Assembly (NCBI GenBank): GCA_018813785.1
Contig: JAHJAU010000081.1
Location: 1-59,687 of the forward strand
DNA from: Patescibacteria group bacterium
Lineage (GTDB): Bacteria > Patescibacteriota > Patescibacteriia > SG8-24
Reading direction: 5' to 3'
Length of the DNA: 59,687 nucleotides
Positions 688-38,867 of this stretch are shown one piece after another (position 1 is the stretch's first letter; each line of letters starts with the position of its first letter). The notes below the pieces were generated by a model. It made no database searches. It had not been told where the DNA came from and saw only the letters and a program-made list of their open reading frames with translations. Both the position numbers and the translations under genes were made by a program.

Positions 688-701
688 AAGGAGGGAGAGA
701 G

Positions 702-1268
702 ATGAGTAAGAGGCAGTATTTGATGGGAGCGGCGGTGCTGATCGTGCTGTCCGCGGGCATCACGGTGCTGGGGGTCATCGCCTATCGTCTGGCGAGAAGC
801 CCCTCGCAGTCGACGGCCGTGGTCGACAACGACGACGACGGCACAACGAGCGATCAGGTGCCGCCGGCGGCTGACGAGGTGGTGCCGGGTGAAACAGACG
901 ACGAGGCTCCGCCGGCCACCGCCAGCATCGATCAGGCGCCGAACGGAGGCAGCGACAGCCTCGCCACCCTTCCGCCGCCAGCCAAGCTGGTCGTGGATTA
1001 CACCGGCGGGGCAGTGACAGTGCGGCGGGATGGCAACCTGGAGCTGCGAGCCAAGAATGCGCCCTTCGGCTTCGGTGAACCGGCAGCGGCCAATCCCCAA
1101 GGAACGGCGCTGGCGAATGGCGACAAGCTGGTCGTCTTCTCCGCCCCCCGGGCGCTCGCCACCGACTCGACCGGCTGCAAGGCCACTCAGGTCGAGTACC
1201 GACTGCGCCCCAACGGCGACGTCGAAGTGGTGACGCGGGGTTGTACCCGCATCACCCAGTGGGAGTAG
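702..1268 (+). CDS. Hypothetical membrane-anchored protein encoded in a high-GC cassette
   Basis: 188 aa with a strong SD (AAGGAGG), its own promoter and terminator. Codons are overwhelmingly G/C-ending from about codon 8 onward. The protein has an N-terminal TM helix (AAVLIVLSAGITVLGVIAY), an acidic/Pro-rich linker, and a C-terminal domain of about 100 aa with 2 Cys. I recognise no family. Confidence 0.6.
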   Translation: MSKRQYLMGAAVLIVLSAGITVLGVIAYRLARSPSQSTAVVDNDDDGTTSDQVPPAADEVVPGETDDEAPPATASIDQAPNGGSDSLATLPPPAKLVVDYTGGAVTVRRDGNLELRAKNAPFGFGEPAAANPQGTALANGDKLVVFSAPRALATDSTGCKATQVEYRLRPNGDVEVVTRGCTRITQWE

Positions 1269-1302
1269 GTCGCCTACCCCACAACTCTCTAGTCGCACAC
1301 CG

Positions 1303-1334
1303 CGACCCCAACGCTTTGTTGGGGTCGTTTTTTT
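1303..1334 (+). terminator. Rho-independent terminator after the GC-rich ORF
   Basis: Stem CGACCCCAAC (1303-1312) / GTTGGGGTCG (1318-1327), loop GCTTT, followed by a T7 run. Confidence 0.8.
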
Positions 1335-1437
1335 GACTGAGATTAAATTTCTCCGATCGGGTACCGGGGCGGCTGCGCACCGGACTGTTCGCTGGCTCAC
1401 AGTCCTCTCGCCGCCCTTCGAATCCCTTTCATAATAT

Positions 1438-1467
1438 GAAAAAGCCTGCCTGACGGCAGTCTTTTTC
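1438..1467 (-). terminator. Hairpin terminator downstream of tRNA-Asp (bidirectional shape)
   Basis: CTGCC (1446-1450) / GGCAG (1455-1459) core with flanking A-run and T-run extensions, immediately 3' of the tRNA on the minus strand. Confidence 0.55.
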
Positions 1468-10719: not shown

Positions 10720-11277
10720 TTATTCTCCTTCTGACTCTGGCGCTGATAAATAATGGCCAATAAACTCATGCTCCGAACCACTTTCTTCGCGTCCGCGAAA
10801 ACGTAAAAAAATAATTTTATCTTCTGGAACATCCAGAATCTCAATCTCGTGCGTAGTTGTCATTTCATCTTTTTTGATACTCCCGAGTTCATAATCAAGC
10901 GTTCGGCCATAATCAACGATCGAAGTCATGGGAATGGTTGTTGTCCAAGACAGAACAAATTTTCCTGCTCCACTTTCAACAAACTTAAACTCAGAAAATA
11001 TGTCGTAACTGACGCAATCAGAAAAACAAATTTTAACGCTTTCGTCTGGCGAACAGATCCCGTCTCCACATACACCCCTTTTCACCTGGATACCTTCATC
11101 TTTAACCCCTGAATTTAGACCTGAGTCTCTTTCAGTGGCACCAGTCGGACTTTTGGTTTGAGATATTGTTTTGTCCGAAAATAAATCACTTCTTCTTAAA
11201 ACAACAATAGCACTAATAACAACCAATAGAGCTGCAGCCAGTACTACTACAATAATGATTAAATTTTTATTGCTCAT
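10720..11277 (-). CDS. Type II membrane protein with one Cys module and an Fn3-like beta domain
   Basis: 185 aa. It has an N-terminal TM helix (LIIIVVVLAAALLVVISAIVVL), a CGDGICSPDESVKICFSDC module, then FVLSWTTTIPMTSIVDYG... typical of Fn3/PAP-N-like sandwiches. Confidence 0.75.
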   Translation of the reverse strand: MSNKNLIIIVVVLAAALLVVISAIVVLRRSDLFSDKTISQTKSPTGATERDSGLNSGVKDEGIQVKRGVCGDGICSPDESVKICFSDCVSYDIFSEFKFVESGAGKFVLSWTTTIPMTSIVDYGRTLDYELGSIKKDEMTTTHEIEILDVPEDKIIFLRFRGREESGSEHEFIGHYLSAPESEGE

Positions 11278-11310: not shown

Positions 11311-14300
11311 CTACTCTTCACCACACACTTTTTGGAAAATTGTACGCGCCAAAGTGTCGGCATTAATCGAACGACAAATATCAACAAATCTAGCAGATCT
11401 AGGCGTATCAAATTCATTTATCGGTTCGGGTAGGGCTGATTCCCACAAAGGTCTATGATTTGAGCATCCCCTATTACCACCCCTTGAAAGCACGAATAAC
11501 TCGACGTAGTCTTCGGCTGTATCACAACCGGGTAACGTGCAGTTCCTGGCCGCTTCAGCCACTATTTCAAGATTGACACTCGCTAAAGCGCTTTCTGGTA
11601 CAGGTACTAAACCATTACCAGCCGGAGGTGGTTCATCAGTCACTACCACAACATAAGGATGGGCGTTACGCCGCCAGGAAATACCATAGTCCCAGCCGTA
11701 ATCATTGTCTGGCCTCATCAAGGCATAGGCAGCGGCATAACTTGCCTCAACCCCCATATCATCTCTCCCGGGATCAAACTTACTTAATCTTGGACGGTCA
11801 CGATTCCAATCAATAAAAGTTTGTGGATCCTTATCACAAACCGGTCTGACTACATCATCATCCCACGCCCGCCAACAAAAAGAGTACATATTTCTTAGGG
11901 CAGTCTCAAACTCTGCAAAACTAACTAAATCCTGAAACGAGTGAGGTAGATATCGAGGACCTTGCCGAATATTCAATGTATTTAACTCCTTTTGTGAAAT
12001 AGTAACGAAACCGAATCTATGGTCACCTGTGCCAGCCGCGTTAACTTGTCGGGCTAAATCGCTCAAAGCATTTATAACGGAATCTATAACGTTATTCATT
12101 GTTCCAGTTACATCTATTACGAAAACCATGTCTACGCGATTGCGCAAATGTAGAGCGTCATCAGCTCTAGCATTACAATCATTATCAATGCCGTCGCAGC
12201 TGGTTTCCAAACCAGCTGGCACTACAATACCGGTATCAGGGATTAAATAGCGTGGATGAGCAGTGGCGTTATCCTTTACACAATCAAAATCATCTGGCAC
12301 ACCATCGTTGTCATCATCTGGATCGCATGAATCAGGCAGACGAGTTTCTTGAGTCTCATCAACAAGCCAGTGTTGCCGTTCTACACAAAATTCTCGCAAT
12401 TGAGGATCAAAAACCGTATCACATCTTTCTAGTGGTGCAGGGCCACTCCCAATAACGTAGGCTCTACAGGCAGGGCAATCGAGATTGTCCGAGCCGCCAA
12501 TTACAGCCAGCCCTGATTCTATTTCACATATCTCTGATTCTCTATCTGCACAATCTAAGACACAAGACGCATCAGAACAAATAGCGTAGCCAGTTTGTGC
12601 ACCAAAACTTTGGTCTTGTAGCCGAGTACTTACACACAGACGACTTGAATTGGGAGTATATAAAACCGGCTCGCATATTTCTGGTCCGGCTGGAATAGAT
12701 GCAGGTCCTTGGATATCACCATCACCGCAATATGGACCGGAGACCGTGCCAATTCGGCAGGCCGGGGTGCAATAAGTACACAGTCGACCATAGGTCGGCG
12801 TACAACGCGTGCCGTTACGCGCTCCGTCGTCACACAACTCACCACCCGCCCAATTAACAAAACCGTCACCACAAACATTGTTGCGACAGGTGTTGGTGCA
12901 AGTGTCGTTATTTTCGATGTTACCGTCATCGCACTCCTCGCCGGTTTCTCGCATACCATTGCCACAGCGCCCCGGCGCAGTACAAGCCCAAGCACTCCAC
13001 TGACAGGCAGTGGGGTCATCACGATCAGAGGCCGGATTATTCGCTCCACAAGATCGAGTAAACCGCTGATCGACCGTCGGGCAAAAGACACACAAACCAC
13101 CATCTTCGGCACAATCAGCATTAGTGGCACAAGCACGACCATTGGGTCGTCGAACGTCACCACTGGTACCGATGCAAGCACCGCGACTGGTTTGAATACC
13201 ACCGTCGCATTGTTCAGTTCCGTTTATAATACCGTCTCCACAACGCGGTGCCGGACCACGACAATCCCAGGAACAGCTATCAACGTTGACTCCTCTGACA
13301 GCTCCCCCGGCACACGCAACTCCAGAACCAGCCAAAATACCATTCAAATAATAACGACCATTGCTCGCTCCACAATCACAAACTTCACTTGGGTGTGGTA
13401 AACCATCCCCGCAACGGAAACCAAGAGTCTTACAATTGGTACTGCAATAGCCGTATCTTCCATTCAACGCACCATCATCGCACCTTTCCTCCCGACTACC
13501 CTGAATAACACCATCACCACAATAACCCACCTCACAAGTCGCGGGATCGGGATTAACCGGAATAAATTCACGACAGGCGCGCGGCCCTTCGGTCTGACAA
13601 ATTTCCTCGCGAGTTCCCTCAACATCTCGCAACACGCCTTCAATTTCGGCCGAAACGTTACAAGCACCAACTCGTCGCTGACCAACTTCACAAATTTCGG
13701 GATCAACATCTGACTCATTGAGTATGCCATTACCACACTCGGCTCCTTCACCAAGCGGCACACCAGTACACGAATCGATCCCCCGATAACCACTCAACCA
13801 AATCTTCGTATCGGCATAGTTGCAGGCACCACCACTCCACTTACAACCCCTGGCCAGACAACTCTCCGAGTCAACCGGATCCAAACAAGTTTCACCCCCG
13901 AACTGCCAACTGGCGGCCCGACCGGCATCATTTAAATATTCCAAATCAGCATTAAGCTGTACCCCGCCACTCAACATGGAATATTTATAGATATGAGAAT
14001 GATCGCCGCAACGGAATTCACGCTCAGTTGAATTCCAGCAGGTATCGGCCTCAAAACCGGCTTCAACCGGACAAGCGGCAATATTATTTAAAGGATCTTT
14101 AGGTAAATTAACCCTAAGCCCTGACCCAAGAACCGCATCCCAAGATGGCCAAATACTATAAGTTCGCGACCGCAAAAATGTCCCCTCGCGCAAGGCTGGC
14201 GGCGAAGCAACCTGATTAATCGTCCGCCTCATATTTTGCAAATCCGCCCAACGTCGAACATCATGTTTAAATTTCGACTCCGGCACATCACAGGTGCCTA

Positions 14301-17300
14301 AGGGGCAATCAGCATCAATCTTACAGATAATATTATCTTCGCTGTCTTCGAGATGTGCGGCTGAGCCATCGTTGAGGCGACAAATATAAGTGTCGGCTAG
14401 ATTAGCATTAAAATCTAAACGACTGAGAATTTGATTAAAGACTGAGACGGTCTCGGCAGACGCACCATCGCTATAAGACATGACATAAACATTGGTGAAT
14501 AGGTTTATGCCACTCTGAGCACCAGCGTTCACGTACACCGTCCGTCCATCACGTAAACCGTCGTAACCGGCGACCGATAAAGATGAAGGCGAACCACGGA
14601 AGCCACGATCAACATACCAGTCAGCAATACCGCTATGTGTTCGATTGGCAGCGATTCTTAGACCAAAAGCATCATCACGCCAGACACCGTCCCTGCTCCT
14701 GACTGGATCGAAAGTAAAAAGATACTCTCGCATGATTCCTGGTGCCGGATCAGTCAAGCGAACAATTGATCGACCGCTGTCAGCCGGAGCCGTACCAACG
14801 GGATCTTCAATATTAAGATATGGTAATAGTCCACCAGCATCACCGGCACGCACCCCATCACGACAGTAATAGAACTCGACATTAGTCCAACGATCCAAGA
14901 ACGGGTACCAGACCCGAGAGTTCGGCGCACAATGATGAATTGGTGCTGGACCCAAGCCACCACCGTCATTTTGTTCCCAAGGCAATGAAACTTCACCAGT
15001 TGCAGAACAAGCCCGCCACTCCGGCCAAGGGTTGTTACACAACATCACCACTACATTACTACGACCGGCATATCTGGCATCTAGATCACCTAGGGTGGAT
15101 TCGGTAATAGTAATAGCTGCCTCCACCACTGCCTTCCCATCCTGAGCAATATAATCTTCTGGCCTGTCTCCCCGACGGCTACCCCTGACCCTGACCCGAG
15201 CTTGATTTGGTGTCAAAGGAAAAATTTCTTCAGCTGGAATTTCATCTTCCACTACTATCGGAGAAACTGGACCATCCTCAAGATCCCCACCATCCGGCTG
15301 TTCAGTCCAAGACAAATTCCAGGCATAAATTCCAGGCATGCTAACGATAGGCATGTCACCATCACTATGTACCTCAGCGGTAAACGCGTGTTCATCTTCA
15401 ATAGAAGAAAACAAATCTGATTCCGGATCAACACTAACCCGACGCACGCGACAAATCTCATCTCTGGTACCAAAATGAGCGATATTCGACTGAATCGTTA
15501 CTCCATGAGTAGACTTGGCGCCTGGTAAAACACGAACACGAAGCCAGGCATCAGCCGGATAAGGCTCACTCGGCCAAAATTCGGCCTCAGTGGCGCTAGG
15601 TGTCACCACCTGACCATTAACTAAGCAAAAATCAGCTACTGCTGGCAATGGAATGGCCGGTGCACCAAAAACTGGGCTGATAATACGCTGAACAAAACCA
15701 ACGACGTGCTGCCAAAGCCTGGCTAGTAGTCCGCGCGGTTGACCGCCCACCTCGGCTATGGCTATCGGCCGGACAACTTCTACGCCTTCACCACAACCGT
15801 CAGCATTATAGTAACCAACCTTTAGGTTCTGTTTAACGGACACTGAATCCATTGGTTGATCGAAAAAGACGCTAATAATTCCATTACGGCAAATATCGTC
15901 CCGACCAGCGACTGGGTCATAGGACAAAACTCTAGGCTTGGCCACGCAACAACCAGATACAGCACAACCCAACGGTTCATCTGGCAGGGGACCAGGAAGT
16001 TCACCTAGCCGGATCGCATCAACGATAGCTGCGCAATGCGCGTCACCATCAACTGCCACTCCACAGGTACAAGCGAGCGTTACTCGTGAATTACCCTCTT
16101 GTCCGGCTGGCACTTCAGGATGATCAGCGGTTACTGTACTAGTAGCCAAGGCGGGATCGTCAGTATCGTTATCACGTGACATAACCACCTGATAAGTATC
16201 GGTAAATCCGTCAGGCCCCAACATTCGACCATCACAACGCGGATGCTCGGCTGGCGCATTCAGGACACCATCACCACAAAATGAAGGTGTGTCATGAAAA
16301 GCAGATGAACCTTCGCGCAGACAACGATCACTGCAACCGTCATTATTACTGGCATTGCCATCATCACAGGCTTCACCAAAGCCTGCCTCCACAACACCAT
16401 TACCACAACAATTCATTGGTGGTGGATCACCAGGAACTGGAGGAGGACAAGCACCAACCAAAGCACCTTCATACAAGCAGTTGGCACTACAACCATCTCC
16501 GCGATTAGTATTGCCATCATCACATTCTTCGCCTGGTTCTGTTAAACCATTACCACAAGAACTAACGCAAAGCTCACCGGCTGGTGTGGCTATTGTACAA
16601 AGCTGAACAGTGCCTTCATTCAAACAGTCTCGACTACAGCCATCACCATCGCGAGTATTGCCATCGTCACAGGCTTCGCCATCAGCCCGAATTCTATCAC
16701 CACAAGTCGAACGACCGGCGGTTGATCCGAGCAAGATACAGCCCCAGCCTTCGGGTCGACCGTCGCCATTATAATCCTGCCTAGGATCCATACAGCCACG
16801 TGGGAAGACCAAAGCCCCGCCAGCTAATGGATCGGGAAGTGCATCACAGTTTTCTCCGACATTTATAGCTCCGTTACCACAAGCAGGCGGCTCGGTTCCG
16901 CTGACTAAACAATTACTGCTGCAACCATCACCATCCAATACGTTGCCATCGTCACAATCTTCACCGCGCTCTGCTGGCAGACCATTACCACAGGCCGGTA
17001 CATTGGGTAATGATCCGGTCATTAGACAACGATCGGTACATCCGCGAGGCAAGGTCGAGTCAGTATCCACCGTGGTCGTATCATCAACACGTAACGGCCA
17101 ACCTGCGGCGCTGACAAAACCACGCAAAACTGGATTGGGATTAATACCCCACTCCCAATCATACTCATCGGCTACCAATTCCAAACCGTCCGGATCACAA
17201 GTATTCGGCCGACTACGAGCGGTTAAATTCAAACCCAACCGCTGACCAACATAGTAAAGTGTGGCGTAATTTGGTCGCAACTCAACCCGACCAATAGCAC

Positions 17301-20300
17301 AACCTTCCGCGTCTTCCACCGTTCGGAATGACCACTGATACCAACCAGCGGTATTAAGACCGGTTAAAGGCACTAAACTAATCGAGGTAATTCCAGTTTC
17401 ATCTCCGCCTTTCAAACGAACAACGTAATGCGTTAATGGTCGCAAACGACCGCGTGGAACAATCGTCACTCGCATCATGCCCCGAGCCGGGTCGGCTGGA
17501 ACAGCCGGAGCGTCGGCCACCACAGCAAATGGAATGAGGTTAAAAGGCGGATTGCAAGAAGGATTTCGACATTCAAAAAGCTGGACATTGCCCGGAGCGG
17601 TCAAAGATCCTTCGTTCATTGGAACATTAAATTGTGCGTAAATCAGGGCGTTCGTGCAGGCTTCTTCGCAACCATCAGCCGGAGAAACCTTGGTCACTGT
17701 CGGATCAGCAAAAGCCACTCTAACTAGTGATACACCGCGTAGTGGCAGCTCACCATCATCCGGTGTCAAAGCACAAAACAGTCGATCTGATTCACCTTCT
17801 GGGGTTTCACGCTCGCCACTGGCATAGTACACGCAGTGAGCCCGAGGATGAGCAGGTGGTCTTGGCGCTGGGCTGATATGACCACCATCAATTGACCAAT
17901 CAATTCGATAGCCACCACCAGCAACACACTCCAACTCCACACATCTACCGTCTGTTGGAACGGCTTCAAACACGGTGTTTGGTACTCCTTGATGCTCGAT
18001 CGTGGCTCGTCCAGGATTCACAAAAACACCAGCAATCTCGCACGGCGTTCGATCCTGTTTAGCTCTAAAAAACCAACTGTAATCACCGCCCGGACGACGA
18101 TCAAAATTCCCATCCAAATAACGACCATCCATGTCTACGATACCAAAACCCTCGCCGGGGTTTGATCTTAAGGTAACTCGATACCAATAACCTGGACGGA
18201 GCTGTCTGTTCCCCGGTAAATCGTCGGGGTCAGCCGGATCATCCGGCGGGTAAGCACCGGCTTGTGGTCGAAAAGCAATTACGGTTCGTCGACCAGCTTC
18301 ATCCGCTTCAACAGCGATATTTATGGTTGCTCGATCAATTGGAACCAGCTCTCCCCCTGAACAGTCTAATGAATCACCGTTGCCACATTCCTCAAATAAA
18401 ATGCTGGCTGGATCTCTTAAAGATTCAGGCAACATTTCAGTCGTGAAAGCGACAGCGACCTGCGCATCCAAACAGACGTTGGTCAGTCGATCAGCCGGTG
18501 TGGGACTCTGACGAACTGGATGATCGACACCCAAAACGCAACTTCGCCGCAAAACCCGTGGGTAATTCGGTAAAACATTTGTACTAAAAAGCCAGCCAAA
18601 GGCACTATTTCGTTCATCCTGACAAGGATCGTCCGGCGTATGACAAGACCCGTCTCGACAACAAGTTGTACCCTCAGCACAAGTATTATCGACATTGCAA
18701 TTTTGAACATTAAACGGAATGGGGTTCCTGGCCCAAACGTTTTCAGCTACAACGTGAACCGGCCCGGAAACTGGCCAAGTTGCCGGGTTCCCCCGATCAC
18801 CAGGAACAACTGCTCGCAAACTGGTACCACCCCACGCCGGATACAGACCAGAGGCCATTGAAACATAGTCTGGTCTAGGCAAAAGATCCGACATGACTCC
18901 ACGCAAATAAAACCGCAATGAATTTTCTGGTCGGGCTGGGTTAAAAGCCCCACCCATAGCTGCCACATTGCCAGGGCCTGTACCAAACCCCTCACCTTGA
19001 ACTGTTATGACCGTGCCCGGCGGACCAGAAACAGGTGAAATCGAACACATTCCCGGCGGCACCGCAGCATCGGTCACTTCAAAACCAACTCGATTACTGG
19101 GCTGACCGGAGACACTCGTTATAACTTGAACTTGATAATCACCCTCTTCAACAAACAGTTCACCCTCGTTTTCTTCGATAATTTCCTGAGTTAGTCCAGG
19201 AGTACGCGGCACTTTAACCACAATATAATTGTCGTGCCAATTGTCTGCACAAATCGGCTCAAGACCCAGGGCAATATCATCACCAACTTCTGGCAGGAAA
19301 TAAACCTGACCACGCCGATTGCCAAACCCCGATCCTAAAATAGTTACATATGACCCAACCGGACCGGTAGCCGGACGAATTTCTTCTATTCTGGGACCAC
19401 CGGCTGAAGAGGATAAGCGTAAAGTAAAATTAGCTGGATTTGACGGCCTGACCCCACCCACAACAACCCGCACCGGATAGATGCCTTCACGAAGAACCGT
19501 TGGAACAATCGCTGTAATTAAATTAGCTGCCCAAGTCATGCCACCTCGTCCAATATCTACACCATCCATTCTGACCAAACTATCGCCTATCGCCGCTCCA
19601 AAACCACTACCATGAATATTGAAAGCACTACCAGAGGATCCAACTGACGGTTCCAGATAACAAATACCCGGCAACACATCAGCGGTAACAGTAAAATCAT
19701 GAACTGGATCACCAAATTCGTCGTCAGTTCTGTCAGCTGGTCCGGCGGCAGTAATTAACATCAATGGACCAGAAACTGCTGCCGCTGGCACAGCCACGAT
19801 AACTTCGTTGTGTTGCCAAGCAGCTGGATCGCAGGCTTCAACTGTAACATCATCAGCCTCACCTTCTGCACCCAAGAATACTATCCGACCGGGACGACTG
19901 CCAAAAAACCTACCACTAATAGTAATGAGACTACCTGGTCCGGCATCAAGGGGTGTTACGTCAGTAATAATCGGACGATCCTCGCATCGACCGGTATCTG
20001 GGTTGCAATAACCAGACGCGCAATCTTCGTGGGTCGTGCAGGCGCTACCTGGACAGCCTCGACACTCACCACCACAATCTTCTCCTTCTTCGCCCTGATC
20101 TGCGTCTATTACGCCATTGCAACAATGAGCCGGATTGATATAAAACTTGCGACCAGTCATAGCACCGGACTGCGGTACTCCATCAGCAGCCACTGCAGTC
20201 AAAGTATGTGGGACACCTGTTTCCAAACCTCGAGCGTCGATATAAATATCGTCTTGAATTTCAAAAACCTCAAAAGGATCTACAGGAGAACTATTGAAGA

Positions 20301-21348
20301 CAGTAGCTTCACCAGGATATGGATCAAAAAACTCATCGACCAGATTAGCTGCTCCACCATTAAGTCTAAAACTGACTAAGGTTGGCAGAAAATCATCTCT
20401 GGCTGTAGCCCGGATCTCAATCTGCTCACTGCAATAGGCTGGATAAGACACCGGTGAACCGATGCTGACTGTAGGAGGTGTAATATCAACCTGATTACTG
20501 AAAGCCATGGCCCGATCACATAGATATCGATCAGCTTCCGGTGAAGAAATATCACCCAGAGTCGGCCAACAAATTAATCGTCGGCCGCGAGTATCTTGTA
20601 GACCATCATTTACAGAAACGCGATACCAATAATCATGTTCAAAATAAGTCGGATCTTCTTCTGGACTGGCGTTCGGTCTAAAAATTATCCGATTTGACTC
20701 AATAGCACGAGTGCCAACAACTTCAACATCGCAGTCCGCCTCATTAAACGGCCGCGGCTCATCACCTGAGAGTCTGGGATTACAGCGTGTAACCGCAAAA
20801 GAGGCCGGGCTGACAGAGCCGGGAAAAATATCGGCTGTGAATGCTACTTGAATGGCGTAATTCTTTGGCCAACCATTATTTCGTGGACCAGAACCAATCG
20901 GTGCCACGCCAGCCACACTAAAAACACTGCGACTGCCAGGTATTCCTCCGCCACCCGGGCCACCTGGTCCACCGGCACCCTCACCCAAAGTTCCGCGCTG
21001 AATTGCACCCAGTATAAAAGAGGCAATGGCGTAGGCCGACATAATAATCACCAATCCAATAACTCCATTGCGCATCCAGGCCTTGGCCTTATCTATCTGC
21101 TGACTATCGCCACCAGCAGTCATCCACAAAAAGCCCGCATATAATATAAGAAGAACAGCAACGATACCAAGAAGTCCCAGAAATGCATTTATTATTCGAC
21201 CGATAGTAATCCGAATATCGGTCGAGGTTAAACCTAGACTCTCCCCATACTCCAAACCCAAATCAACCTGAGCCAAAGCCGGCAGGGCAAATATTGCTAT
21301 TCCAAACAGCAATATGATCAGAAATGTAAATCGTTTAGTTCTTGGCAT
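11311..21348 (-). CDS. Giant (3,345 aa) multidomain surface protein
   Basis: Single uninterrupted 10,038-nt ORF. Reading N- to C-terminus: pilin-like 2-TM N-terminal module, Ig-like segments, IPT/TIG units, two blocks of Cys-rich repeats, then a C-terminal VWA domain. Motif series and coordinates are given in the findings. Opposite-strand and off-frame ORFs inside it are low-complexity artefacts. Confidence 0.9.
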
Positions 21349-38790: not shown

Positions 38791-38867
38791 GGCGAGGTAG
38801 CTCAGTTGGTTAGAGCGAAGGACTCATAAGCCTTAGGTCGTGGGTTCGATTCCCACCCTCGCTACCA
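38791..38867 (+). tRNA. tRNA with CAT anticodon, elongator type (Met, or Ile2 if lysidine-modified)
   Basis: 77 nt. It has a GGCGAGG/CCTCGCT acceptor (G1-U72), AAGGA-CTCATAA-GCCTT anticodon arm (A31/G39 unpaired), GTGGG-TTCGATT-CCCAC T arm, and encoded CCA. Confidence 0.85.

Follow-up and report, generated by a model that had tools for sequence, protein, structure and literature searches.

We analyzed a 59,687-nucleotide (nt) stretch of DNA from a Patescibacteria group bacterium (contig JAHJAU010000081.1 of assembly GCA_018813785.1, positions 1–59,687; hereafter the window), in which a GC-rich segment lies between the ribosomal protein gene rplT and a tRNA-Asp gene. An earlier interpretation of the letters alone (the sequence-only reading) took this segment for a recent foreign cassette, caught behind a resident promoter at a site where genomic islands insert. 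Our analysis supports a different view, which we regard as probable: positions 617–1546 hold two unrelated things that are both GC-rich by happenstance. The first (617–1335) would be a self-contained, vertically inherited transcription unit, with promoter, hairpin in the 5' untranslated region (5'-UTR), Shine-Dalgarno sequence, open reading frame (ORF), and terminator, that belongs to one Patescibacteria clade and encodes an orphan protein of 188 amino acids (aa). The second (1343–1439) would be a decayed copy of a small hairpin element, separate from the gene, that is found beside several kinds of tRNA gene.

The sharp jump in G+C described in the sequence-only reading was borne out. The window as a whole has a G+C content of 0.4475, and positions 720–1430 reach ~67%. 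The 600-nt windows 601–1200 and 901–1500 both stand at 0.637, and 60-nt windows give 0.63–0.73 over 731–1270, 0.72 at 1361–1420, and 0.25–0.37 at 431–640, a profile that the earlier hand counts fit (40/60 for 781–840 and 22/60 for 481–540). The 188-aa ORF (702–1268, + strand) has G+C contents of 0.683, 0.524, and 0.815 at codon positions 1, 2, and 3 (GC1, GC2, and GC3), and its G/C-ending codons are indeed unlike those of the housekeeping genes: GC3 is 0.390 ± 0.052, with a maximum of 0.54, in the 46 other nonoverlapping ORFs of at least 100 aa in the window, which places the gene at z = 8.2 for GC3 and z = 7.6 for total GC. The rplT gene of the window is mildly raised only (GC3 0.52). A 3345-aa ORF elsewhere in the window (11311–21348, − strand) lies in DNA of ~0.50–0.53 G+C through its GC1 and GC2 (0.60 and 0.51), with an ordinary GC3 of 0.37; the composition there reflects amino acid content, unlike that of the gene under study.

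The predicted signals of the transcription unit all lie on the + strand. A candidate promoter (617–645) comprises a −35 box, TTGACA (617–622), a 17-nt spacer, and an extended −10 element, TGg-TAAGGT (637–645); a simple consensus scan did not list it, because the −10 element agrees with the consensus at only 3 of 6 positions. A 5'-UTR hairpin follows (664–687; fold −17.8 kcal/mol, z = −2.5 relative to shuffles), and directly 3' of it is the Shine-Dalgarno sequence AAGGAGG (688–694). Beyond the ORF is an intrinsic terminator (1302–1335) with a 12 bp stem (1302–1328) and a T-run (fold −25.2 kcal/mol, z = −5.5). The promoter, hairpin, and Shine-Dalgarno sequence are present as the sequence-only reading described them, and folding confirmed that the gene has its own GC-rich terminator; the second in-frame ATG, which had been placed at 721, is at 723.

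The sequence-only reading had proposed a synteny comparison of the rplT/tRNA-Asp interval, and we carried it out. The order smpB, infC, rpmI, rplT, GC-rich gene, tRNA-Asp (− strand) is identical in three other lineages, represented by contigs L003, L007/L008, and L010 from unrelated samples, and in each of them the interval holds an orthologue of the gene (46–59% aa identity). The patchy presence expected of a tRNA-gene island was not seen, as the site is occupied in all four of the lineages found. The promoter is conserved in L003, L007, and L010 (−35 box, 17-nt spacing, and TGnTAAnGT, followed by CGTCYGA), and these contigs have a hairpin of different sequence at the same position, just 5' of GAGAGGAGGAG (GAGGAGG). 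The N-terminal anchor (M-[ST]-[KR]-x-Q...) is homologous across the lineages. The window terminator is homologous to the GACCCCAA..TTGGGGTCGTTTT terminator of L003 and L007, the form GACCCCAA...TTGGGGTC being common to all three. Because the anchor, the promoter, the hairpin ahead of the Shine-Dalgarno sequence, and the terminator are homologous across lineages, the AT-rich first codons are part of the same ancestral gene, and the proposal that a native N terminus had been fused to a foreign body does not hold. Gene starts commonly show lower G+C and less structure.

These lineages are deeply diverged. The flanking housekeeping proteins of the window are 69%–91% identical to those of the relatives, and the codons of their genes match at 45%–57% of identical residues, compared with 33%–41% expected by chance. 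At pooled four-fold degenerate sites of the flanking genes, identity is 35.8% compared with 27.5% by chance, a retained signal of 0.116 ± 0.032. Judged from these comparisons, the relatives' housekeeping genes are near synonymous saturation with respect to the window. The orthologues are nonetheless GC-elevated: the G+C content is 0.62 and GC3 is 0.645–0.649 in L003 and L007 (background GC3 ~0.40), and the corresponding values in L010 are 0.61 and 0.70 (background GC3 ~0.55). The high G+C thus predates the split of four deeply diverged lineages, and the gene is therefore not a recent insertion at tRNA-Asp. The sequence-only reading had itself said that such a segment, if carried by relatives as an ancestral feature, would speak against foreignness, and the relatives do carry it; it had said the same of GC excursions among native genes, and this applies in part, as the relatives have other GC-rich genes nearby.

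We searched for homologues with the single sequence against 5.8 billion clusters and with a profile against 1.84 billion representatives (~15 billion proteins). Relatives of the 188-aa protein were found in only three other clusters (P0002, P0003, and P0004), which makes a four-cluster family, and all are members of the clade; no outside homologue or high-GC donor was found among these sequences. Taken together, these results favor the view that the GC-rich gene is an ancient, clade-restricted, compositionally odd gene that has stayed at one locus. The contig of L010/L014 (CAZAOV010000001.1, GCA_964486995.1) is titled “uncultured Gammaproteobacteria bacterium,” and its L20 protein is 86% identical to that of the window; given the shared L20, orphan gene, synteny, and Patescibacteria hairpin element, that label is probably wrong.

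Two other accounts of the segment can be set against an old resident gene. A recent cassette, in which a high-GC coding body (for example, from a high-GC host) has come to lie behind a resident promoter at a tRNA-Asp island site, would explain why the gene is an extreme compositional outlier (its GC3 z score of 8.2 is the kind of atypical base composition that tRNA-gene islands show), why it adjoins a tRNA gene that bears an insertion relic, and why its product is an orphan. We nevertheless consider it very improbable. Orthologues with homologous promoter, N terminus, and terminator occupy the same site in three lineages at near-saturated synonymous divergence; a repeat search found no tRNA-derived fragment or repeat that would bound the gene on the rplT side; and the displaced tRNA fragment of L003 and L010 separates the gene from the tRNA, so that the GC-rich gene is outside the tRNA-bracketed segment. 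The sequence-only reading was right that tRNA-Asp is an insertion site and right that no integrase is present (there is none among the ORFs or Pfam matches of the window), but the insertion relic and the gene are different things. The 188-aa gene is the only convincing ORF in the rplT/tRNA-Asp interval. Nor does the gene resemble an integron cassette, since it has a conserved promoter and an intrinsic terminator and no integrase accompanies it (attC sites were not explicitly modeled). The other account, a chimeric assembly in which DNA from another organism was joined on by the assembler, hardly merits belief: contigs do tend to break nearby (the window begins 700 nt upstream, L009 begins inside the ORF at window position 780, and several contigs with the element stop no more than a few hundred nt away from it), but three other lineages, which come from unrelated samples, show this arrangement too, and one or both junctions are reproduced at 99.98%–100% identity by three more contigs, the products of two assemblers and of an NCBI metagenome-assembled genome (MAG). 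Of these, L001 (a 10.9 kb MEGAHIT contig of run ERR2191545) encodes the exact protein and covers both junctions, L002 (a Logan contig of the same run) encodes the exact protein and covers the left junction, and L009 (a contig of the NCBI MAG GCA_018824875.1, “Patescibacteria group bacterium”) has a partial copy of the gene and covers the right junction. As far as assemblies can show, the misassembly that the sequence-only reading had warned of is excluded, with independent contigs spanning both junctions.

The encoded protein is predicted to consist of a helical transmembrane anchor (residues ~3–31), a fast-evolving, acidic, proline-rich, disordered linker (~32–95), and a β-rich domain (~96–188) with two cysteines (the sequence-only reading had outlined an anchor, an acidic/proline-rich linker, and a two-cysteine domain), and searches of Pfam, NCBIfam, and PDB returned no family above threshold. 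Two candidates were rejected on score: DUF4774 (Pfam; 15.1 bits against a cut-off of 25) and MXAN_5187 (NCBIfam; 17 bits against a cut-off of 200). In an alignment of the orthologues, 40-odd positions in the last 100 residues are invariant, both cysteines included, and for the close pair L003 and L007 the nonsynonymous/synonymous divergence ratio (dN/dS) is 0.12 in the C-terminal domain and 0.64 in the anchor plus linker. By these comparisons, the C-terminal domain is under purifying selection. Two AlphaFold2 models agree in predicting a helix at 3–31, disorder at 32–95, and about six β strands after residue 96, but both are of low confidence (predicted local distance difference test score 46 for the full length and 55 for the C-terminal domain), which counts against this picture of the protein. 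The conserved β-rich domain is probably disulfide bonded. Because positively charged residues precede the helix in the orthologues and the cysteines are paired, we infer that this would be a type II membrane protein that carries a small disulfide-bonded β domain on an acidic stalk outside the cell.

What has kept the gene GC-rich is a separate question, and here our confidence is lower. The leading explanation, which we hold to be somewhat short of probable, is an old transfer from an unsampled GC-rich source, after which the gene would have been ameliorated to different degrees in different lineages. Several observations strain it. In an F81-type estimate in which the shared four-fold signal and the composition excess relax at the same rate, the retained signal (f = 0.116 ± 0.032) corresponds to ~0.34 per lineage (upper bound 0.42) and predicts a G+C content at four-fold degenerate sites (GC4) of at most ~0.64 in the window gene, even from a start at 100%; the observed GC4 is 0.84. 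The GC4 of L007 (~0.60) is compatible with this bound. Between L003 and L007, the synonymous divergence (dS) of the gene is 0.35, compared with 0.02–0.21 for its neighbors, and this is awkward for an old transfer because a gene that changes faster should be ameliorated sooner, not later. Among the ~15 billion proteins, neither a donor nor a homologue from outside the clade was found. Finally, there is a second GC-rich orphan family, likewise clade-restricted, and its existence is as compatible with an endogenous cause as with repeated transfer. This family (L003 890–1816, L007 1154–2086, and L010 1818–2759, all on the − strand) lies 8–9 kb from the gene, with a G+C content of ~0.61–0.64 and a GC3 of 0.68–0.70 in otherwise 46%–52% GC genomes and a dS of 0.22; it encodes a protein of 308–313 aa with a signal peptide, a coiled coil, and a C-terminal domain, and a search with the 308-aa protein returned clade members only, in three clusters. 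Two neighbors of the 308-aa gene, the ORFs at L003 1–709 and L010 638–1837, are also GC-rich. High-GC Patescibacteria are present among the loci that were fetched (L013 at 0.61 and L015 at 0.56), and neither has a homologue of the gene.

Alternatively, the high G+C may be endogenous and maintained: fast-evolving genes for exported proteins would recombine frequently between strains, and GC-biased gene conversion (gBGC), or selection on the DNA or mRNA, would hold up their G+C with no foreign origin. We think this rather unlikely. In its favor, the excess survives saturating divergence, and the window GC4 of 0.84 exceeds the neutral-decay bound; the dS of the gene is 2–3 times that of its neighbors, and that of the other GC-rich orphan gene is also raised; the other GC-rich genes encode exported, clade-restricted proteins and lie at dips in L003/L007 identity; and the noncoding 3' flanks are GC-rich as well, a finding at odds with codon selection. 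In bacteria, recombination and GC3 have been reported to be linked, and both the excess over the decay bound and the raised dS are as expected of a recombination-associated process (PMC4450053). On the other side, changes between L003 and L007 polarized by outgroups lean to GC loss (9 versus 1 and 23 versus 4 at codon position 3), but the outgroups are saturated and a pyk control gives a mirror-image bias. Reported effects of gBGC in bacteria amount to a few points of GC3, far smaller than the excess of +25 to +43 seen here. Whatever likelihood is left by the old transfer and an endogenous process falls to repeated import of alleles from GC-rich relatives or to another cause.

Three further ideas about the composition of the gene were considered and rejected. 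Codon selection for expression is disfavored as the main cause because the noncoding DNA after the gene is also GC-rich, including 370 nt in L010 (~0.62); rplT, moreover, has a GC3 of only 0.52. A 281-aa antisense ORF (624–1469, − strand) is not conserved, as L003, L007, and L010 have only fragmented antisense ORFs in this place; it is the usual stop-poor antisense frame of GC-rich DNA. The possibility that the gene consists of stacked relics of the hairpin element found no support, since a covariance model of the element detects no additional copy in either the window or the loci. The GC-rich noncoding DNA of L010 (10520–10890), which lies between the gene and the displaced tRNA fragment, has no counterpart in the window; it includes a terminator (10737–10766) and a long GC-rich hairpin, GTAGCGGC...GCCGCTAC (~10773–10850). 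Between the GC-rich gene and tRNA-Asp, L003 (10647–10898, − strand) and L007 (10677–10931, − strand) have an ORF of 83–84 aa that matches no family. Near-identical in the two (dS 0.018, compared with 0.06–0.35 for other genes) and absent from the window and L010, this ORF may have arrived recently or may reflect a sweep.

We turn now to the hairpin element. The ~100 nt of GC-rich noncoding DNA beyond the terminator, which the sequence-only reading had counted as part of the cassette, is present, but it is a feature of its own. It is a left-truncated copy (1343–1420, listed on the + strand; 94.5 bits, E = 1.7e−16 with covariance model R1) of a core that is a 78-nt hairpin with two stems (7 + 7 bp). 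In the window, stem 1 is formed by 1367–1373 and 1410–1416 and stem 2 by 1382–1388 and 1399–1405, with a loop at 1389–1398. Positions 1351–1420 align with L003 11047–11123 and L010 10913–10990, and the conserved sequence begins at 1351. The window copy is without the CCCCTCG start and the first ~8 nt of the core, and without the outer left arm, a tRNA fragment. Its right arm (1417–1439, + strand, that is, in tRNA sense on the strand opposite the tRNA gene) is a partial copy of tRNA-Asp nt 54–76 that matches at 13 of 23 positions, and positions 1417–1428 (TTCGAATCCCTT) form an exact inverted repeat with 1480–1491 (12/12). The GC-rich DNA stops at ~1416–1428, which is ~40–50 nt from the tRNA's 3' end rather than the ~30 nt estimated earlier. 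A predicted bidirectional terminator hairpin (1436–1469, both strands; an inverted repeat with a fold of −18.7 kcal/mol, z = −6.5) lies downstream of the host gene, tRNA-Asp(GTC) (1469–1546, − strand), which encodes its CCA end and was identified by ARAGORN and by the Rfam tRNA model (66.6 bits).

The core shows the compensatory changes that mark a structured RNA or DNA element. Across nine sequences, which were mostly found with an exact-match probe in the unpaired or stem 1 part, 97.5% of the cells of 14 pairs are paired, and four pairs have changed on both sides (for example, GGACTGT/ACAGTCC, GGGCGC/GCGCCC, and GGTCCGT/ACGGACC). None of 500 shuffles reached this score, and in slid controls 38%–78% of cells were paired. 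In a search of 177 kb, the covariance model R1, built from nine copies, recovered all of the known copies and no other sequence. Rfam 15 has no family for the core, and with E values of up to 1 allowed, the only match, on the window and on the intact copies, is to tRNA. The cores of the three syntenic tRNA-Asp copies are 84%–87% identical, and because the intergenic DNA around them cannot be aligned, this identity is, to judge by the alignments, far above the neutral expectation at this divergence. Identity between cores at different tRNAs can reach 96%–99%: 99% for tRNA-Ser and tRNA-Lys(UUU), 96% for the window copy and tRNA-Ser, and within this range of 96%–99% also for tRNA-Lys(UUU) and tRNA-Lys(CUU). 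On these comparisons, core similarity does not follow tRNA identity. The internal loop of the core (window 1374–1381) contains the palindrome TGCGCA, and its minus strand reads GGTGCGCA, which we take to be the first 8 nt of the XerC arm of Escherichia coli dif and which may be a coincidence; a second palindrome, GGTACC, is at 1360–1365. A pseudo-peptide profile of the open frame across the core, used to look for more copies among predicted proteins, yielded one marginal match and was abandoned.

Other copies were sought with exact 22–24-mers of the core in public genomes and metagenomes, and matches came from a Candidatus Uhrbacteria MAG, a Parcubacteria MAG, another MAG, and seven metagenome contigs, two of which duplicate MAG loci (L018 = L012 and L020 = L015). 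The host genes are those of tRNA-Lys(UUU), tRNA-Lys(CUU), tRNA-Ala(GGC), tRNA-Ser(CGA), and tRNA-Asp(GUC). Wherever the contig reaches (in all but the truncated L022), an intact tRNA gene is encoded on the opposite strand, with the core 52–70 nt downstream of it. In the nine intact copies, the left arm is the reverse complement of tRNA nt 57–76 at 16–20 of 20 positions, with the junction always between nt 56 and nt 57, and on the other side of the core there is a partial copy of nt 54–76 in tRNA sense (11–17 of 23 positions). The core is thus flanked by inverted copies of the 3' end of its host tRNA, and the outer copy forms direct repeats of 9–88 nt with the intact tRNA gene; a copy of the tRNA's terminator usually accompanies the left arm. 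The nine intact copies therefore have the displaced 3' fragment that is characteristic of a tRNA-gene island or attachment (att) site remnant, and the window copy has lost it. In L003, for example, an 82-nt direct repeat (99% identity) comprises the last 20 nt of tRNA-Asp, the terminator, and some downstream sequence, and L010 has the same layout with older, diverged repeats. The inverted arm is not present at the element-free tRNA genes of the window (Val, Leu, and two Met). The anticodon-arm region of tRNA-Met (38791–38867) has a 12-nt inverted copy (92%) ~50 nt downstream of that gene (38825–38836/38916–38927), which may be due to chance.

Several features of these copies indicate that the unit has moved between tRNA genes and has been gained or lost by recombination between its repeats, as far as sequence comparison can indicate this. 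Cores at different tRNAs can be as much as 96%–99% identical; L017 has tandem copies, one interrupted and one intact at tRNA-Lys(CUU); some copies have themselves been interrupted; and the element is present in L003 and absent from L007, which is 97% identical overall. The interruptions in L017 (1646–1940, in minus-strand orientation) and L021 (653–940) are of ~200 nt after stem 2, and the inserted sequence is AT-richer with a hairpin of its own (GGGCGAC..GTCGCCC). A regenerated tRNA gene and a displaced fragment mark the ends of tDNA islands (PMC4383910), and for this reason the inserted segment would be the 130–190 bp unit itself, which would have moved among the genes for tRNA-Asp, tRNA-Lys, tRNA-Ala, and tRNA-Ser. 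A unit of this size is far too small for an integrase gene.

A possible account of the unit and of what moves it, which we advance tentatively, is as follows. The core and its host-tRNA-derived arms would form a Patescibacteria-specific miniature element that inserts between tRNA nt 56 and nt 57, regenerates the tRNA, and is moved by something other than a classical integrase encoded in cis (perhaps as a folded hairpin or as a cDNA made by reverse transcriptase [RT]), in a clade that in addition maintains very GC-rich, fast-evolving orphan genes for exported proteins without recent transfer. Such an element appears to be undescribed: searches of the literature for reports of an element in the tRNA T-loop of Patescibacteria returned nothing relevant. 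A number of results weigh against a mobile element of this kind. Its presence in L003 and absence from L007 can be explained by a deletion between the repeats instead of an insertion. Each of the four GTDB genomes hit contains a single copy, which is unusual for a mobile repeat, and only ~10 distinct copies were found, most of them with the exact 22–24-mer, so that the apparent conservation of that stretch is inflated. No integrase-like ORF was found within ~4.5 kb of the copies at ~10 loci (N-terminal ORF translations were inspected, with no Pfam scan), and no parent element or transposase was found, nor any match in viral contigs or phages; in the plasmid collection, the core matched only 28-nt stretches in Paracoccus, which were set aside as chance.

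It is also possible, and again we say so tentatively, that the element is a mere scar of tyrosine-integrase islands: the island body would have been deleted and its conserved end on the attP side retained, akin to a cis-mobilizable element (CIME) and not a unit that moves itself. The T-loop is a known sublocation for integrases. An intact tRNA gene with a displaced direct 3' fragment and a T-loop junction is, furthermore, the signature of integrase tDNA islands (PMC4383910). However, all ~10 copies have the same small size and the same boundaries, and none has island-sized content between its repeats; one and the same core is used at five tRNA species; the host's own terminator, 99%–100% identical, is often part of the repeats; there is an extra inverted arm; and no integrase-like ORF was seen within ~4.5 kb of any copy and no match was found in viral, phage, or plasmid collections.

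We are more doubtful that the element is produced or mobilized by way of RNA and a reverse transcriptase (as a hybrid cDNA formed from the 3' part of a pre-tRNA by a template switch) or that it integrates as a folded single-stranded DNA hairpin with arms that mimic the target. In favor of such a route, the direct repeat of several copies begins at tRNA nt 57 and extends through the terminator U-tract, a span that makes up the 3' portion of the primary transcript; the left arm can be complementary to the 3'-terminal 20 nt of the tRNA without a mismatch, as in a primer-binding site; and two arms are inverted around the ~78-nt core. An RT of the type found in diversity-generating retroelements (DGRs) ends 130 nt from the element copy in L016, and a related RT (59% identity) is ~5.2 kb from the window copy in L001. 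On the other hand, the complementarity to the tRNA 3' end, although 20/20, stops at nt 57, giving a junction between nt 56 and nt 57 instead of the stop between nt 58 and nt 59 of retroviral primers. L017 and L021 repeat only 21–22 nt, and the right arm is imperfect even where the direct repeats are perfect. No single-stranded DNA phage or Xer-type context was found, and an adjoining RT was seen only once, in L016; the RTs have their own pairs of template repeat (TR) and variable repeat (VR) and look like ordinary DGRs. This single adjacency is a lead and not evidence.

The two DGRs can be described briefly. One occupies L001 1–2700, upstream of window position 1: its RT (17–1057, − strand; RVT_1, 1e−19; motif IGLPLGNLTSQ) ends 16 nt before the contig does, and a 121-nt, 88% identical repeat pair (1457–1577/1943–2063), the candidate TR and VR, lies in a GC-rich stretch. 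The other is a complete DGR (L016 1–2370) beside the tRNA-Ser copy of the element, with the VR at 3–144, the TR at 474–615 (142 nt, 92%), and an RT that ends at 1983 and is 59% identical to that of L001; it is the sole case of an element copy with an adjacent RT. The flank beyond the displaced tRNA fragment in L012 (1–200), L018 (1236–1353), and L015 (100–330) contains several copies of GTCATCCCGGAA(A/T)T or TCCCGGA, which suggests another repeated element; in L012 and L018 this flank also includes a ~118-nt palindrome that gives spurious matches to microRNA families, and the contigs end soon after.

These findings have some wider consequences. For those who call horizontal transfer from composition, an outlier beside a tRNA gene that proves to be old, syntenic, and clade-specific is a caution, since composition alone misdates it. 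A GC excess (GC4 0.84) that persists across saturated divergence together with a raised synonymous rate, if true, needs more than simple amelioration, and the question may be relevant to the evolution of surface-protein genes in ultra-small episymbiotic bacteria. The element, for its part, is compact, structured, outside Rfam, and located at nt 56/57 in at least five tRNA species, and it appears to coincide with contig breaks in MAGs. Identification of its mover could uncover a novel way of integrating DNA, or else a novel small RNA, in a phylum about which little is known.

The gene and the element each resemble known systems in part. Like an ameliorating transferred gene of the kind described by Lawrence and Ochman, the GC-rich gene is a GC and GC3 outlier in an AT-richer genome, belongs to no family, and has an excess that varies by lineage, but it differs in being orthologous and syntenic across saturated lineages, in having no known donor, and in having, in the window copy, a G+C content above that expected from simple decay. 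Like a DGR target, it evolves fast, encodes an exported protein, and shares its genome with a DGR-type RT that is a few kb away. However, no template or variable repeat involves it: the DGR has its own TR and VR elsewhere, and the only long repeat pair in L001 is the one at 1457–1577/1943–2063, which does not touch the gene (L001 5640–6206), so we rejected it as a DGR target.

With the tDNA islands cataloged by Islander (PMC4383910), the element shares an intact tRNA with a directly repeated, displaced 3' part and a T-loop junction. It differs in that its segment is only ~130–190 bp long and noncoding with no integrase found, in that one core occurs at five tRNA species with an extra inverted arm and with repeats that often contain the host terminator, and in that the GC-rich gene is outside the bracket. 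The CIMEs of streptococcal integrative and conjugative elements (ICEs) likewise are short segments that are flanked by att-like sequences, lack recombination genes, and are possibly mobilized in trans. They are, however, kilobases long and derived from identifiable ICEs of the same att specificity, whereas the hairpin element has no parent that we could find and its tRNA target varies. Retroviral and long terminal repeat (LTR) primer-binding sites and the tRNA hybrid cDNAs of Neurospora retroplasmids offer a 20-nt complement of a tRNA 3' end that stops in the T-loop and a duplication bounded by the 3' end of a transcript; fungal retroplasmids form their hybrid cDNAs by template switching, and retroviral tRNA primers stop between nt 58 and nt 59. 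The element ends at nt 57 and not at nt 59 and has neither LTRs nor a dedicated RT, the nearby RTs being of the DGR type only. A last comparison is with the attP(+) site of the CTX phage and the attC sites of integrons. The target of the element is a tRNA gene rather than dif or attI, its arms are imperfect, and it comes with no phage genome, integron integrase, or Xer context; nevertheless, in both cases inverted, target-like copies enclose a structured spacer of ~80–90 nt whose stems show compensatory changes, and this resemblance to folded-hairpin recombination sites is no more than a lead to how the element may move.

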